Below, piece by piece: positions 13,679-20,375 of a DNA stretch of 32,000 nt (positions are counted from its first letter, which is position 1; every line of letters begins with the position of its first letter). A program made the translations under genes and the position numbers. The stretch comes from Promethearchaeota archaeon (GTDB lineage: Archaea; Asgardarchaeota; Hermodarchaeia; Hermodarchaeales; Hermodarchaeaceae), in the NCBI GenBank assembly GCA_048938295.1, contig JBHLMI010000001.1:59449-91448 (forward strand), in the 5' to 3' direction. The notes beneath the pieces are model-generated. The model searched no databases. It was not told the origin of the DNA and saw only the letters and a program-made list of their open reading frames with translations.

Positions 13679-14713
13679 GTGCCAGATGCATCCCAAATCC
13701 CAAAAATCGACAACCTAGAAGAACGTGCGGGGGATGCGAAATTCTTCTTAACCTTGGGTAGTGGTTCATTCATTCTTTTGGGTATACTTCTTCTCCTCCC
13801 CTACTTTCTCAATTACTTCGGGTTACTGCTCTTTAATCAGAATATTACGCTTGCCTCGCTCATTGCTGGCCTGGGTTATTTACTCCCCGGAATTGTCCTC
13901 TTCATCTGGGGATTGGGTAAGGTCTTTCATGGTAAGGATTTGACTTTCAGTCAAGTCTGGAAAGCTCGCATCCAAATTGATGACGTGAAGCGAACCCTGC
14001 GCTTCCTCGTTTTCGTCACTTTCTTCGTCATCTTATTGGTTGTACCTGTACTCATCGGTTTATCAGTCCTCGATATCATGAACAGCATTATCAACTGGGC
14101 CCTAGCTATCTTTGGGCCACTTGGTCTGTATATCGGCGTATTCATTGTCAGCCTCTTTGGCAATTTCACTGTAATTTTTCCCATCCCCTATCTGTTCATA
14201 ATCCTCCTCATTGCCCTTCAACCAGGGTTCACGCTTCTCGACGGATTACTCCTTGGCCTCGTCGCAGGAGCAGGTGCTGCCATTGGAGAAACCGTTGCCT
14301 GGCTGCTGGGACGCACTCAAAGCGAATCCCTGGAAGGTTCACCCACAGGGCAACAAATCCTCAAACTTCGCAGTCAAATCGGACGAGGCTATGGCGGGCT
14401 TCTAATTTTCTTCTACGCTGCAACACCTCTGCCTGATGACATTCTCCTCATTGCATTAGGAGCGACGAAATACCCGTTGTGGAAAGCCCTTCTTTTCTGC
14501 TTCTTTGGAAAAGTCGCATTAGCACTGATTATCACTTTGGGGGCACAACTCCCCTTTCTCCAACCCATTCTCATACAAATCTTCGGTGGAGGTTCAGATC
14601 CCATTATGGACACGTTCTACCTGATCATCGGTATCGCATTAATTGGGCTCTTTTTCATTCCCTGGGGAAAATTACTCGAGAAGTTACAACGAAATTCAAA
14701 CAAGTTGGAATAA
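13679..14713 (+). CDS. DedA/VTT-domain membrane protein with N-terminal extra TM helices
   Basis: GAGAAIGETVAWLLGR, ATPLPDD...IALG..KYPLWK..LFCFFGK; many TM segments. Confidence 0.8.
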   Translation: MPDASQIPKIDNLEERAGDAKFFLTLGSGSFILLGILLLLPYFLNYFGLLLFNQNITLASLIAGLGYLLPGIVLFIWGLGKVFHGKDLTFSQVWKARIQIDDVKRTLRFLVFVTFFVILLVVPVLIGLSVLDIMNSIINWALAIFGPLGLYIGVFIVSLFGNFTVIFPIPYLFIILLIALQPGFTLLDGLLLGLVAGAGAAIGETVAWLLGRTQSESLEGSPTGQQILKLRSQIGRGYGGLLIFFYAATPLPDDILLIALGATKYPLWKALLFCFFGKVALALIITLGAQLPFLQPILIQIFGGGSDPIMDTFYLIIGIALIGLFFIPWGKLLEKLQRNSNKLE

Positions 14714-15361
14714 AAAAACTTGTTCTAGCAGTCCGAGGATGCGTCCTTTTCCAAGAATTCGAATTCTGTAACCAGTCTGTTTCATAATTGAGATAATATA
14801 TAGAATAGAAGTGGCAGAGCTCAATAAAATCTGAATCTGACCATTATTTGCCAACATTTGTCGAGCGCCTTTTAGAAACCGACTAAGTAGTTCAAAATTG
14901 GAACCTGCACACCACGCCCTAGCGATCCAACTTGTTGCATCGACCCGTAAATAAGGGGGGTTAAACAAGATAATGTCGAAAGTTTCACCTTCCACGGGGG
15001 CAAACAAGTCACCCTGAAGAACGCGGACGTATTCTTCTACTCCATTTAACCGGAGTGTCGCTTTTGCACATTTAACTGCATACGGGCTGATATCAGTGGC
15101 AGTTACTGACGGAGAAATTTGAGCTGCTGCAGCTGCTATCGCACCTGATCCAGTTCCTAGCTCTAGAACCCGACTTCCCGACTTAATCTGCATATGCTGA
15201 ATAAAGAAGTGGGTAGTACGTCCTGTGACTGGATTAAAAACCTGAGGGCATATCTGAATTTGTAAACCATCCATGGTGATGACGCGATTCAGTCGTATTC
15301 GTCGGTGTAGCAGCTCCAATACCCATCGGACGAAGCGTGGATATTGGGAACGAGCCAGCAT
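14696..15361 (-). CDS. HemK/PrmC-like class I SAM-dependent methyltransferase
   Basis: VLELGTGSGAIA, DISPYAV, GDLFAP and DIILFNPPY; 3' end overlaps the VTT gene by 18 bp. Confidence 0.85.
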   Translation of the reverse strand: MLARSQYPRFVRWVLELLHRRIRLNRVITMDGLQIQICPQVFNPVTGRTTHFFIQHMQIKSGSRVLELGTGSGAIAAAAAQISPSVTATDISPYAVKCAKATLRLNGVEEYVRVLQGDLFAPVEGETFDIILFNPPYLRVDATSWIARAWCAGSNFELLSRFLKGARQMLANNGQIQILLSSATSILYIISIMKQTGYRIRILGKGRILGLLEQVFLFQLV

Positions 15362-15363
15362 AG

Positions 15364-15380
15364 ATGCACCTTACTCCTTC
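15364..15380. repeat. 17-bp exact dispersed repeat, copy 1 (RBS region of the hemK-like gene)
   Basis: ATGCACCTTACTCCTTC, identical to 27310-27326. Confidence 0.6.
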
Positions 15381-15430
15381 CTTTGCGGTTGATTCATCTA
15401 TTTGTTTAGTTTTCCCCTAAAACTACTAGG

Positions 15431-15478
15431 AACGGAACCGTTACCCCACAAGGTTTTAAACCAGTCACGTTAACGTGA
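15431..15478 (+). promoter_or_regulatory. Promoter of the Pro-rich gene: TATA flanked by palindromes
   Basis: AACGG-AA-CCGTT (15431-15442), TTTTAAA (15454-15460) and the perfect palindrome TCACGTTAACGTGA (15465-15478), just upstream of ATG 15491. Confidence 0.55.
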
Positions 15479-15490
15479 ACCTGATTCAGC

Positions 15491-15955
15491 ATGGCACTCG
15501 GCGGATTCGATTTTTTAGCAGCGGAAAAAGATACTACAAAAAAAATCGAGGAACTCGCCAATGTCCTCGAAAGGGTGGCAACGATTTTTCTTAACGGCGT
15601 TGGCTCGCTCGAAAACCAGATGAACGAATTTCGTACCCGGCTAGCGAAACTCGAAACCCAAGTCGATACAGTTCTCCGCATGGGTGGACCAAAGGGCGCT
15701 CCAACTCCCTCATCAACCGCTGCCCCCCAAACGCCACCACTCACGGCATCATCTAGCCCTGGCATGCCCCCGTCTCCCACAACATCAGGAACTTCACCCG
15801 GGTTAGCTGCTCCAACACCCCCCACTCCAACATCACCCTTAGGTGCTGCTGCTTCAGGCGGTCTTGGCATCCGTGCTCAAATGCAAGGCGAATTACAATC
15901 TTTCTTAGACCGTCGCCGGGCAGCACTTGAAACAATGATGGAAAACGAAGAATAG
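15491..15955 (+). CDS. Coiled-coil + Pro/Ser/Thr-rich linker + C-terminal amphipathic basic helix protein
   Basis: Heptad-like IEELANVLERV...LENQMNEFRTRLAKLETQV, Pro-rich aa ~66-117, and C-terminal RAQMQGELQSFLDRRRAA; own TATA element. Confidence 0.7.
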   Translation: MALGGFDFLAAEKDTTKKIEELANVLERVATIFLNGVGSLENQMNEFRTRLAKLETQVDTVLRMGGPKGAPTPSSTAAPQTPPLTASSSPGMPPSPTTSGTSPGLAAPTPPTPTSPLGAAASGGLGIRAQMQGELQSFLDRRRAALETMMENEE

Positions 15956-15964
15956 TAGGATTCC

Positions 15965-16603
15965 CTACTCGTTAAAGTATCTGGTTAAATCCTGTTGGCT
16001 CTGTAAAGGTTTGTGTTCGACACCTTGTTCCAAAAGGCGTTTCAGAATCCGCATATCGGCTTCCATTTCAGAAACCAGATTTTGATTGTATAGACCCGCT
16101 GCAGGGTGAAACATCACGAAATATGTTCGTCCAAGCCGTTCGATGGTTTTTCCATGCATCGTCCCCATTCGGAGATTGGTCTCCAGGATTGTTTCTGCTG
16201 GTACTCGACCTACTAATGCGATGACTTTGGGTTGGATCAGCTCCAGCTGTCGCAGTAAATACGGGTAACATGCCTCTCGTTCATCAGTGAGGGGCTGTCG
16301 ATTTTCTGGGGGACGACACTTCACGGTATTCGTTATGAAGACGGTTTCCCGTTTGATGCCAGCGCTTTCGAGCATCTTGGTAAGTAATTGGCCAGCGGCG
16401 CCAACAAATGGCTCGCCTTGCAAATCCTCCTGTCGACCAGGTGCTTCGCCGATTATTACTAATTTAGTATTTTGGGGTCCGACGCCGGGGACTGCTTGAG
16501 TTCGAGATTCAGCAAGCCTGCACTTCGTACACCCAAGGATTTCTTTTTGCAACTCATTCCATTGGGTTGATGACATGGCTGACCACTTGCCTGGTACTGA
16601 CAC
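15965..16603 (-). CDS. udg: Family 4 uracil-DNA glycosylase (4Fe-4S)
   Basis: CTKCRL, IIGEAPG..ED..GEPFVG.AG, NTVKCRPPENR.P, CYPYL and FHPAA. Start may be ATG 16576. Confidence 0.92.
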   Translation of the reverse strand: MSVPGKWSAMSSTQWNELQKEILGCTKCRLAESRTQAVPGVGPQNTKLVIIGEAPGRQEDLQGEPFVGAAGQLLTKMLESAGIKRETVFITNTVKCRPPENRQPLTDEREACYPYLLRQLELIQPKVIALVGRVPAETILETNLRMGTMHGKTIERLGRTYFVMFHPAAGLYNQNLVSEMEADMRILKRLLEQGVEHKPLQSQQDLTRYFNE

Positions 16604-16631
16604 CTATGAAGTGAGGATATTCCTCTTAATG

Positions 16632-17477
16632 TTATTCGCTCGTAATTGCTGCACGTACCCGTTGGCGTTTCCGTAGTGCATAGAAGAGCACTAGGACAAG
16701 AAAGATTACCACAGGTAGGACAACAGCTAGGAGTTTGTTAAAAAGTGCCATATCCACAGGAACAATAACAACTTCAGTGTCGATCATTTCGTCAAAATAA
16801 AACATCGAAACGTTTGCAGTGAACATGCCAAAGTCATAGATGTGGGAGACATTGGACATTAATGGAATGGCTACAGTATTTAATCCGGGGGCAAGGTCGA
16901 CTTCTTCTGAAGCATTGATGAATTTTGGTCCAAAGACATCAAGTCTTACCGACCTAGTTCGATCGACGTGGTTTTCGATTGCAACTAGCAGCAGTCCGGC
17001 TTGATCTTGAGAAAAGACGTTTCCAGGCACAATGGAGTGGATACTTGCAACAGGAAGCACAGTGATTTGGTACTGAGCAAATAGGAACGAATACTCGCCA
17101 ACATTAACCTCAAAGGTGACCGTGTGAGGTCCGAGGGTTGCCGTTTCGTTCACCGTGTAATCAACGATAACTGTCAATGTCTCTTCTGGACCAATGGTGA
17201 AGTTTACCAATTCACTAAGCGGGTCAACTAAACTCTGGCTTCGAATTTCGCCTGAAATATCCACAAACCGAGCAAACCCGTCGAATGAGATATTAAGTAG
17301 GTTATGGACGGTCGCATTCACTTGGCCTCTCTCCGCTTGATAAAGTTCAGTTGGTACGTTAACATCGCTGATTTGAATATTCGGTGTGGCTGCAGGAACG
17401 AAGCTTTGCAAACTCACAACTGAGGTCATGAACAATACGGCAATAAAGAGCGTACAAATGCGAAGTGACAGTTTCAC
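16632..17477 (-). CDS. Secreted, C-terminally anchored Ig-like/CARDB-type surface protein
   Basis: Signal peptide, beta-rich repeats (VNATVHN, VTFEVNVG, LLVAIEN), C-terminal TM helix and RKRQR tail. Confidence 0.65.
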   Translation of the reverse strand: MKLSLRICTLFIAVLFMTSVVSLQSFVPAATPNIQISDVNVPTELYQAERGQVNATVHNLLNISFDGFARFVDISGEIRSQSLVDPLSELVNFTIGPEETLTVIVDYTVNETATLGPHTVTFEVNVGEYSFLFAQYQITVLPVASIHSIVPGNVFSQDQAGLLLVAIENHVDRTRSVRLDVFGPKFINASEEVDLAPGLNTVAIPLMSNVSHIYDFGMFTANVSMFYFDEMIDTEVVIVPVDMALFNKLLAVVLPVVIFLVLVLFYALRKRQRVRAAITSE

Positions 17478-17660
17478 TAGTTGGCCACCTTGCTGTTACT
17501 AGTCTTGGAGTGCAGAGCCAATGTCTAATGCAGCTTTTAAAGTCTTTCTGACTGGGAAGGAATGTGCAGCTCCAATTTTTCTCGCCGACATAACCTCTGC
17601 GGTTATTTCAGCTTCAGTAATTCGATGGATTTAAATAGGACAGTATTACTGCTATGTGAA

Positions 17661-17672
17661 ACTATATATAGT
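17661..17672 (+). promoter_or_regulatory. Palindromic TATA-containing element upstream of padR (candidate promoter/operator)
   Basis: ACTATATATAGT is a perfect 12-bp palindrome ~30 bp upstream of ATG 17700. Confidence 0.55.
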
Positions 17673-17699
17673 GTAGCTATGTATTCGAGGCTAATCAAA

Positions 17700-18122
17700 A
17701 TGACCGAAACGCCCATCGACAGGACTCAAAATAAAATTCGTGAATGGACCCGTGAGATTAACCGAGGCATTCTTGAGTTCTGGGTACTCAACCTACTACG
17801 GCAGGAAAGCCTTTATGGAGCACGCATTAGTGCTCTTATCGAAAATATGTCGGCAGGGCATATTCAAATGGAACCAGGCACAATCTATCCTCTCCTCAAC
17901 CGTCTAGCAGAAAAAGGCTGGGTCGTAGGGGACATCAAAGTTCGCAGCGAAGGACGAGGACCCATGCGTCGATATTACAGGCTCACAAAGGATGGTGATC
18001 GCCTCCTCCAAGCGATGATTGATCATTACTTTGAAACCTATGAAGCGCTCTTCCAACTAATAGCCTCTGAGTTCCAATCGGTCCGTAAGCGCTTATCTGA
18101 ATTAATGGAGGAAACAGAATAA
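17700..18122 (+). CDS. PadR-family winged-helix transcriptional regulator
   Basis: RGILEFWVLNLL....LYG..I......EPGTIYPLLNRL...GWV......GPMRRYY.LT.DG. ATG 17700 preferred over 17562. Confidence 0.9.
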   Translation: MTETPIDRTQNKIREWTREINRGILEFWVLNLLRQESLYGARISALIENMSAGHIQMEPGTIYPLLNRLAEKGWVVGDIKVRSEGRGPMRRYYRLTKDGDRLLQAMIDHYFETYEALFQLIASEFQSVRKRLSELMEETE

Positions 18123-20375
18123 ATGTCAAACAAAATTCAACTGCGTGTAGTCTCCTTACCCAGTGATGAAGCAGGACGAGGAATTGTCCGCGTCGACCCA
18201 AGGATCATGGAACGCCTTGGCGTTACATCCGGAGATATCATCGAAATCACCGGCAAAAAGACCACCGGTGCCCGCGTCTGGCGAGGGCAATCCATCCACG
18301 CTGGTTCTGGTAAAATCTTCATGGACGGTCTTGTACGAAGTAATGCCGGTGCAGGAATCGGAGAATTCGTTGAAGTCCAACGTATTGATCCGCCCCCCGC
18401 GAAACGAGTGGAACTCGCACCTGCTCAACGCGGTGTTCGCATTGTCGCTGAAGGCGAAGCTGTAAAACCCAGTCTCAATCAGCGCCCCGTTGCGCCCGGT
18501 GATATTATTAGCACAGCTGGATCTGGCGCTTACCGCAGTGGTGATTTCTCAGTATTCGAAGCCATGATGCGAGGTGCAGGCACACCCTTTGCCCTTGGCG
18601 AAATCAAGTTCATTGTAACCAACACCACTCCCAAAGGCGTGGTCAAAATCACTGAGGACACAATCATTCAAATTCAACCAGAAGCCGTTGATGTAACCGT
18701 TAAGGCTCCCTTGGTTACTTACGAAGATATTGGTGGAATCGATGAAGCTATTGACCGAGTTCGGGAAATGATTGAACTCCCCCTCAAACATCCTGTCCTC
18801 TTTGATCGTCTCGGAATTGATCCACCAAAAGGTGTTCTCCTTTATGGTCCCCCAGGTACAGGTAAAACCCTGCTAGCCCGGGCTGTGGCTAACGAATCCG
18901 ATGCCACATTCATTTCCATCAATGGCCCTGAAATCATGAGCAAGTTCTATGGCGAATCCGAAAAACGACTCCGAGAATTATTCGAAAAAGCCTCCGAACG
19001 CGCCCCAAGCATCATCTTCATTGACGAAATCGACAGCATTGCTCCCAAACGTGAAGAAGTCCAGGGTGAAGTCGAACGTCGCGTAGTCGCTCAACTACTC
19101 GCCCTCATGGACGGACTTCAAGCCCGTGGGCGAGTGATTGTCATCGCCGCAACAAACCGACAAGACGCCTTGGATCCAGCCCTGCGGCGTCCTGGGCGCT
19201 TTGATCGCGAGATAGAAATTCCTGTACCAACACGTAATGGACGAAAGGAAATTCTTCTCATTCACACCCGAGGTATGCCCTTAGCGGGTGATGTGGACTT
19301 GGATGCGCTTGCTGATTCGACTCACGGATTTGTGGGGGCAGATCTTTCCGCAGTTGCACGTGAAGCTGCCATGAACACGCTCCGAAGAATCCTCCCCCGG
19401 ATCAATCTGGATGAAGACCAACCTCTTCCTGCAGATATCATTGAGAGCCTTGAAGTCACAGCAGATGACTTTAGAGAATCGCTTCGCCGGGCTGAACCCT
19501 CCGCATTGCGTGAAGTGTATCTAGAAATCCCCAAGGTATCCTGGGACGATGTTGGGGGATTAAAGGAAGTCGAAAATGAACTCCGTGAAGCCGTTGAGTG
19601 GCCTTTGAAGTTTCCTACAAAGTTTGAAAAAGTCGGTGTCCAACCACCTAAGGGCATCCTACTTGTGGGGCCACCAGGAGGAGGAAAGACACTACTAGCA
19701 AAGGCGGTTGCCACCGAAAGTGAAGCCAACTTCATCGCCATTCGTGGACCAGAAATCTTCAGCAAGTGGGTTGGCGAATCTGAGAAAGGCATTCGAAAGA
19801 TTTTCCGGAAAGCCCGACAAGTTGCTCCCAGTATCATCTTCTTCGACGAACTCGACAGTCTTGCTCCTGCCCGTGGACAATGGCAGGGAAGTCATGTCTA
19901 TGAATCCGTCCTCAACCAATTGCTGGCTGAAATGGATGGCATGGAGGAGCTCAAAGGCGTTGTCGTAATCGCAGCTACTAATCGCCCAGAAATCCTTGAT
20001 CGCGCCCTCTTACGACCTGGACGATTCGACCGAATCATCTTGGTACCACCACCCGATCAGGAAGCCAGACTAGAGATTCTTAAGGTACATACCCGGAACA
20101 TGCCTCGCGCCGATGATGTCGACCTCGAGAAAATCGCAAAGGCTACAGATGGCTATTCAGGTGCCGATCTTGCCAATCTCGTCCGTGAAGCAGGAATGTA
20201 TGCGATCCGAAGTGAAGAACAACTAACCACCGTCAGCGCTAAGCACTTCGACGCTGCAAAGGCGAAAATCAAACCCAGCATTACTCCTGAAATGATGAAA
20301 GCATACAAAGAATACATAGATGCCATGTCCACTCAACGCGACGCCATCGACACAACACCCGGTCCATATACCTAG
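18123..20375 (+). CDS. cdc48: CDC48/VAT family type II AAA+ ATPase
   Basis: N-domain GIVRVDP; D1 [26 protein letters not shown]; D2 [25 protein letters not shown]; C-terminus ...GPYT. Confidence 0.97.

Follow-up and report, generated by a model that had tools for sequence, protein, structure and literature searches.

A coiled-coil protein family restricted to Asgard archaea, with a conserved C-terminal helix also carried by small GTPases and actin as a candidate target

A short reading frame from an Asgard genome codes for a protein of 154 amino acids, P0001, which by its sequence is a member of a genuine, undescribed family restricted to Asgard archaea and new with respect to the named protein families. 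The layout of this family is constant throughout the phylum: a short acidic/aromatic motif at the N-terminus, then a stalk (50–60 amino acids of coiled coil), a spacer of low complexity and, at the C-terminus, a helix (the tail). This tail is also found on small GTPases and on other proteins, and it resembles the F-actin-binding segment (FAB) of human VASP. Actin is the leading candidate for its target, which we propose tentatively. The present analysis adds the Thor-like subfamily free of polyproline, the phylum-wide count of the family, a statistical test of the tail against shuffles and background, and a confirmation of the fusions with GTPases.

The window (the whole stretch of 32,000 nucleotides which was analysed) belongs to an Asgard assembly of 2.5 Mb, which is 91.6% complete. 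It is archaeal by content, with genes for CDC48, a family-4 uracil-DNA glycosylase (UDG), HemK2/MTQ2, PadR and a VTT-domain protein. The features of P0001 are collected in Table 1. The reading frame and its three parts (heptad helix, Pro/Thr/Ser linker and a tail preceded by GGLG) are present as described in the first-pass annotation of this DNA. The sequence of the tail is GGLG-IRAQMQGELQSFLDRRRAALE; its M131 falls on nt 15881, where the annotation had placed the start of the motif.

Table 1. Features of P0001 and its upstream region (positions in the window)
Feature	Position	Strand	Basis and remarks
Whole reading frame (P0001)	15491..15955	+	ATG start, 154 aa, TAG stop; pan-Asgard coiled coil/spacer/tail-helix family
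N-terminal motif, aa 1–14, M-A-L-G-G-F-D-F-L-A-A-E-K-D	15491..15532	+	Alignments
Long helix, aa 5–64	15503..15682	+	AlphaFold2 model, heptad count, invariant columns
Disordered spacer, aa 65–124	15683..15862	+	pLDDT ~43; composition; pairwise identity
Tail helix core, aa 125–146, L-G-I-R-A-Q-M-Q-G-E-L-Q-S-F-L-D-R-R-R-A-A-L	15863..15928	+	Alignments; model
Invariant E134-L135 of the tail	15890-15895	+	Phylum-wide alignment
Acidic end, aa 147–154, E-T-M-M-E-N-E-E	15929..15952	+	Alignments
A/T box TTTTAAA	15454..15460	+	Read from the sequence; ~31–37 nt upstream of the ATG

An AlphaFold2 model of P0001, with an alignment of 22 homologs as input, has the same helix, disorder, helix arrangement. 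It consists of a helix at amino acids 5–64 (pLDDT about 90), a disordered region at 65–124 (pLDDT about 43) and a second helix at 125–153 (pLDDT about 88). The heptads of the stalk run without a break from I19 to V61, with I19, L26, F33, L40, F47, L54 and V61 in the d positions. The block V29-A-T-I-F-L-N-G-x-G-x-L-E41 is invariant in the close subfamily and takes in surface positions. The Pfam matches of the stalk are weak, unspecific coiled-coil matches. In the N-terminal motif, conservation within the close subfamily is 90% or more at G5, F6, D7, F8, E12, K13 and D14, and acidic/aromatic counterparts are found in other lineages, for example MSDDFSELL, MAEEFANFM and DDFIMEEFEWAL. The spacer has 60 amino acids, 90% of them P, T, S, A or G; it includes 16 Pro, and its longest Pro run is PP. 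The first-pass annotation had suggested profilin-binding sites in this region. Since P0001 has no polyproline tract, profilin recruitment is unfounded for this protein.

The A/T box upstream of P0001 may be an archaeal TATA element, serving a leaderless or short-leader mRNA. An antisense reading frame, also of 154 amino acids (window 15406-15870, minus strand), overlaps the Pro/Thr/Ser-rich part. Its translation is of low complexity and rich in G, V, P and A, and it is most likely a compositional artefact.

The genes around P0001 have the order VTT-domain protein, HemK2/MTQ2 methyltransferase, P0001, family-4 UDG, an unknown membrane protein, PadR, CDC48 and then TBP. The same gene order is found in the window (13679-20375) and in another locus (L075 3959-10917), whose ortholog is just 49% identical. 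This neighbourhood is kept only among close kin and is otherwise variable; gene context is uninformative on the target of the tail. An ORF of 281 amino acids in the window (16632-17477, minus strand) has no family match; its N-terminal part has a hydrophobic segment, and in its C-terminal part a transmembrane-like segment precedes basic residues, and L075 has a counterpart of 243 amino acids at the same position. The gene of a distant member of the family (L078 5595-6438) starts 2 nt past an upstream ORF of 134 amino acids without a known family, and a roadblock/V4R gene is found just downstream, on the other strand.

A word-indexed search has given 64 homologs of P0001, with 49–88% identity; those with a name are from Promethearchaeota or Thorarchaeota and all are annotated as hypothetical. 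HMMER, run exhaustively on 1.84 billion cluster representatives, returned just 7 matches. In the ESM Atlas only unnamed Asgard clusters were matched, and searches of Pfam, NCBIfam and PDB sequences, with the single protein and with profiles, gave no family match beyond unspecific coiled-coil noise. We have also used two profiles of our own. The close-subfamily profile (A1) finds the gene in 17 of the 18 genomes of the same taxonomic family, with weaker full-length matches in other Asgard families. From loci of these other families we have built a wide alignment of 33 sequences (A2). With the broad A2 profile, members are detected in 339 of 400 Asgard genomes, in 81 of the 90 high-quality ones and in 77 of 85 genera, most genomes having one or two copies. 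P0001 matches both profiles over its full length (1e-71 for A1, 5e-42 for A2) and shows the family layout, with its N-terminal acidic/aromatic motif, coiled coil, low-complexity spacer and C-terminal consensus helix. It is single-copy in its own genome, where the family occurs in the stand-alone form only. All named homologs are from Asgard archaea, and they include Loki-, Thor-, Hod- and Helarchaeota. The interpretation given in the first-pass annotation is supported in part: the family is undescribed, conserved and found only in Asgard archaea, but the searches gave no homology to Ena/VASP or WH2. A word-based search detected no long eukaryote-like relatives, and the same search missed the GTPase fusions which the tail profile finds.

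The tail is the most conserved part of the protein. In the close subfamily, pairwise identity is 0.76 for the stalk, 0.40 for the spacer and 0.81 for the tail, and E134, L135, F138, L139 and R141–R143 are invariant in its 22 sequences. E134 and L135 are the sole invariant columns of the wide alignment. With such conservation, the motif singled out in the first reading of this DNA goes well beyond chance. The tail follows the consensus x-R-x-x-h-x-x-E-L-[KQ]-x-h-h-x-[RK]-x-[RK], and acidic residues frequently come next; an acidic end follows the basic cluster in many lineages. For example, the orthologs in two large closed Loki-type genomes (L086:1501-1956 in G137 and L085:1495-1896 in G134) have the C-terminal order helix, basic, acidic, and end in RRTDDDDDD and RRTDD. 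Both contain PPPPP repeats. The G137 ortholog (G137:C1:2628799-2629257) has 152 amino acids and 16.14 kDa, and its last six residues are Asp.

The spacer, on the other hand, differs among lineages in length and Pro content, from 0% Pro in a Helarchaeota member to the P/T/S-rich spacer of P0001. True polyproline (runs of 5–7 Pro, or GGPP repeats ending in PPPPP) is only found in Loki-type (f19) and f20 genomes. Polyproline is a feature of these lineages and not of the whole family.

The tail is not confined to stand-alone proteins. We have searched the genomes with the tail profile and have then read the longer ORFs. Arf/RagA-like GTPases of about 400–550 amino acids (Pfam PF00025, PF04670) end in a homologous stalk, spacer and tail; in one of them (L136), the whole stalk-spacer-tail region aligns to the A2 profile with an E value of 6e-13. 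In a Ras-family GTPase (L118) the tail alone comes straight after the G domain. An unrelated protein of 220 amino acids (L144) carries the tail at its C-terminal end, and a protein of 697 amino acids with a C-terminal transmembrane segment (L106) has an internal tail motif, APPPPGSAPKSPQTLRGGMTEELKTLFSK. The Arf/RagA-like and Ras-like tails are true homologs with the same motif, as in ...VLSELKNLFDKKK and ...VLDELKDLFAKRKK, whereas P0001 itself has no G domain. We have found no description of these GTPase tails in the literature. Because the tail is present on GTPases and inside a membrane protein, we take it to be an independent, portable docking peptide, always placed on a flexible arm. The fusions with GTPases fit actin targeting, and they fit targeting to a membrane or to a hub protein equally well.

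The comparison with VASP was made in the first-pass annotation, which quoted the human FAB sequence. The quoted sequence is correct and corresponds to residues 259–278; the other mapped segments of human VASP are the GAB (223–239) and the tetramerisation coiled coil (343–380), and Ena/VASP proteins consist of an EVH1 domain, a proline-rich region and an EVH2 region with GAB, FAB and coiled coil (PMC10340426). The VASP FAB peptide aligns in register with the tail profile (A4) at 9.8 bits. Only 19 of 20,000 composition-matched shuffles of FAB reach this score (about 1 in 1000), and the best chance match in 1.92 million residues of six-frame ORFs from the same genome is 9.3 bits. The WH2-like GAB of VASP scores 1.9 bits. 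Tails of other lineages are closer to FAB than the tail of P0001: GGLMGELKSLLAARRKK has 10 of 17 residues identical to VASP FAB, and the f20 tail AIMGELKQLFAKRK has the same residue class as FAB at all 13 positions. Loki-type and f20 members have GPPPPP-type tracts and Gly runs immediately before the tail, an order like that of VASP. The likeness to FAB is above chance, with p about 1e-3 given the composition, but modest for a motif found post hoc.

This likeness should not be read as homology. The family shares with Ena/VASP a coiled coil of the oligomerising type, a Pro-rich flexible region (with GPPPPP-type tracts in some Asgard lineages only), a Gly run before the helix, and a basic amphipathic helix whose residue classes, h-M-x-E-h-x-x-h-h-A-+-R-+, are in register with FAB. 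However, it has no EVH1 domain and no 'KLRK' motif of GAB/WH2, its coiled coil is N-terminal, of the heptad type and unrelated to VASP_tetra, and the order of the parts is reversed. In VASP, a Met takes the place of the invariant Leu of the tail, and P0001 has no polyproline tract. Profile searches agree with these differences. No Pfam match above noise to EVH1 (WH1) was detected in P0001 or in 33 family members, and VASP_tetra (PF08776) did not match in the family. Pfam WH2 (PF02205) gave no match at E <= 10 in 33 members and 8 further proteins, the tail profile matched no PDB chain of WH2, WASP, WAVE or VASP at E <= 10, and the family alignments show no motif of the L-K-K-T/V type after the tail helix. 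We regard the tail as distinct from the WH2 motif, and P0001 as a member of neither the Ena/VASP nor the WH2 class. The 'domain-permuted' VASP suggested by the first-pass annotation is an analogy and implies no relationship.

SCAR, WAVE and WASH are nucleation-promoting factors which have small coiled-coil partners (BRK1/HSPC300, CCDC53). They have an N-terminal WHD/WAHD helix, and the VCA region of WASP, SCAR, WAVE and WASH includes WH2, a helix in the centre and an acidic end in which a Trp is conserved. P0001 is co-linear with the SCAR/WAVE/WASH proteins: long N-terminal helix, Pro-rich region, C-terminal amphipathic helix, basic patch and acidic end. It differs from them in having no WH2 motif and no Trp in its acidic end, nor does the family match WAVE or WASP in the PDB. 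The best Pfam match to CCDC53 has an E value of 0.027 (in 9 of 33 members), and that to WASH_WAHD has 0.25. A kinship of the stalk with SCAR, WAVE, BRK1 or CCDC53 was rejected, as these matches are no better than those to dozens of unrelated coiled-coil families. Two other readings of the tail were also discarded: the family consensus does not fit MIM1 by inspection, and it led us to reject an FtsZ C-terminal peptide.

Another protein invites comparison. The 'domain X' of Thor 1DGelX is a coiled-coil extension of a single-domain gelsolin, for which Akil et al. hypothesised binding to the filament side (PMC7444086). Like the family described here, it is an Asgard-specific coiled coil with a disordered extension, and experimenters have tied it to side binding of F-actin. 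Nevertheless, a profile search of GelX-type proteins from five genomes and of a 40.0-kDa GelX candidate in G137 detected neither the stalk nor the tail of the family.

Taken with the conservation of the tail, these features lead us to infer a small, modular, Asgard-specific adaptor made of an oligomeric stalk, a flexible arm and a docking tail. The N-terminal coiled coil of about 60 amino acids most likely drives oligomerisation, and it bears a conserved surface patch. The spacer, also of about 60 amino acids, would act as a flexible arm, and the conserved basic amphipathic helix at the C-terminus as a portable docking peptide, with actin as its most likely partner. Such an oligomer would present at least two actin-binding tails, each on a long arm, and it could tether, bundle or cap-protect filaments of Lokiactin type. 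In Loki-type and f20 members, the polyproline spacers, absent from P0001, could also feed profilin-actin for elongation; against this, polyproline binding by Loki profilins is reported to be absent (PMC8410842). The Arf/RagA-like and Ras-like switches, having the same tail, would be drawn to the same target.

Several observations speak for actin, among them the likeness of the tail to FAB and, in some lineages, the VASP-like Gly/polyproline context. Of the 121 genomes sampled across the phylum, 115 have Lokiactin-type actin, the genus of P0001 included, and the genome of P0001 contains a profilin and two two-domain gelsolins. The restriction of the family to this phylum, where actin is nearly universal, also speaks for actin. 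The Asgard family f12 is a case apart: actin is present in 10 of 12 genomes and the profile finds the P0001 family in only 1 of 12, so either actin need not be accompanied by this protein, or the f12 versions have diverged. Profilins and gelsolins are the only Asgard actin regulators named in the literature to September 2026; no filament nucleator, polymerase or bundler has been described beyond them (PMC9433394, PMC13716822), and workers in the field expect actin-side-binding motifs which are still unknown (PMC9433394, PMC13716822, PMC7444086). On the other side, no sequence search gave a link to any family of actin-binding proteins, Ena/VASP, WH2 and WASP included, and no actin-related genes are found in its neighbourhoods. 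In the examined portion of the Lokiactin co-IP sheet which accompanies the L. ossiferum motility preprint, GNAMCCOK_02231-02242 are absent; by approximate position, the G137 ortholog should lie near GNAMCCOK_02234, and this absence counts neither for nor against actin. The strongest form of the actin reading would make the tail a true pre-eukaryotic actin-binding peptide of the FAB/WH2 functional class, the stand-alone oligomer the missing bundler or polymerase (profilin-fed in Loki-type members) and the GTPase-borne peptide a wire from switches to actin. We consider this complete scheme improbable.

In the genome of P0001, the gene for Lokiactin-type actin is split by two contig ends (G000:C9:53207-53737, L012, and G000:C18:11403-11834, L013), and the fragments cover amino acids 3–179 and 238–381. 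Of nine relatives in this family (loci L021-L024), five likewise have the actin gene at a contig end; the assemblies seem to break inside this gene.

The tail might also dock to a conserved Asgard hub protein other than actin, a possibility we hold to be somewhat doubtful. Candidates for the hub are a platform for small-GTPase regulators or effectors (roadblock/longin-type), a component of ESCRT and a chaperone-like ATPase. In that case the stand-alone protein would serve as an oligomeric scaffold, or would compete with tailed GTPases for their docking site, and its coiled coil may associate with the homologous one in the Arf/RagA-like fusions. The homology of the whole stalk-spacer-tail to the C-terminal part of these GTPases, as in L136, argues for such a hub, as does the presence of the tail on the G domain of L118, at the end of L144 and inside L106. 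The invariant E-L pair and the narrow hydrophobic face suggest a specific protein groove, and the roadblock/V4R gene adjoins one distant member. But no candidate partner has emerged, no neighbour is conserved, and the family consensus departs from the MIM1 and PIP-box patterns. Nothing sets a hub apart from actin binding, except that it has no precedent of the FAB type. A PIP box, which would bind PCNA, has been considered for the P0001 subfamily: Q132-x-x-L-x-x-F-L139 fits the pattern Qxx[LIVM]xx[FY][FYLW], and the next gene, in convergent orientation, codes for family-4 UDG, an arrangement kept in the 49%-identical ortholog. The family alignment disfavours it, as most lineages have M, N, T or L where P0001 has the Gln; the vicinity of UDG reflects mere synteny among close kin, and a fusion to GTPases would be senseless for a ligand of PCNA. 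We find this reading highly implausible.

Eukaryotic small GTPases have their membrane (lipid) anchors at the C-terminus, the place of the tail in the fusions, and Asgard GTPases carry no prenylation signal; therefore membrane targeting explains the fusions at least as well as actin does. The route of Asgard GTPases to membranes is unknown (PMC10933270). The tail could accordingly be a membrane-targeting amphipathic helix with a basic cluster, an Asgard substitute for the prenylated hypervariable tail of GTPases, and the stand-alone protein would act beneath the cell membrane, as a coiled-coil tether or spacer anchored to it. The Rab/Ras design has a parallel in the flexible linker and terminal helix of the Arf/RagA-like and Ras-like GTPases, and most tails have a net charge of +2 to +4. 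Against a lipid anchor, the hydrophobic moment is low (0.23–0.40) and mean hydrophobicity is near zero or negative. The tail of P0001 has a net charge of only +1 and an acidic end, and the six final Asp of the G137 ortholog go in the same direction. An invariant Glu, in a Glu-Leu pair, is also unusual, as lipid-binding helices are seldom invariant at the sequence level, and in L106 the motif lies inside a protein which already has a transmembrane segment. We judge membrane targeting unlikely; this poor fit to a lipid anchor is among the points in favour of actin.

Asgard archaea have dynamic protrusions filled with actin, and they crawl. A nearly universal, small, Asgard-only protein with a VASP-FAB-like helix on flexible arms is a concrete candidate for an actin regulator, and P0001, with 154 amino acids, is probably soluble. 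The strongest form of the actin reading, if true, would make the family a one-protein forerunner of the eukaryotic logic which leads from GTPases to WASP, formins and VASP. If the target is not actin, the tail would be a portable address label common to Arf/RagA-like and Ras-like GTPases. The localisation of GTPases without lipid anchors is an open question (PMC10933270), so the partner of the tail would in either case answer one of two open questions on how the cells of the closest archaeal relatives of eukaryotes work.

Two other groups of proteins have been noticed during the searches. A long form of 356 amino acids in genome G014 (L042:5327-6394, minus strand), whose ORF is partly masked as N, has the head and tail of the family and several extra short helices with 'LKK' (for example AGLKKINPDE). 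These are WH2-like by eye, with no match to Pfam WH2. A second group of Thor-type coiled-coil proteins, of 243–444 amino acids and with long Pro-rich arms, includes L132:1504-2454, L138:526-1857, L134:949-1677 and L133:1042-1827. Its members have an internal tail-like motif, PPSMQLRQQISAVLGKIR, and the conserved end NWLP..SRAKYYNPK, which suggests a wider set of 'stalk plus peptide-on-an-arm' proteins.
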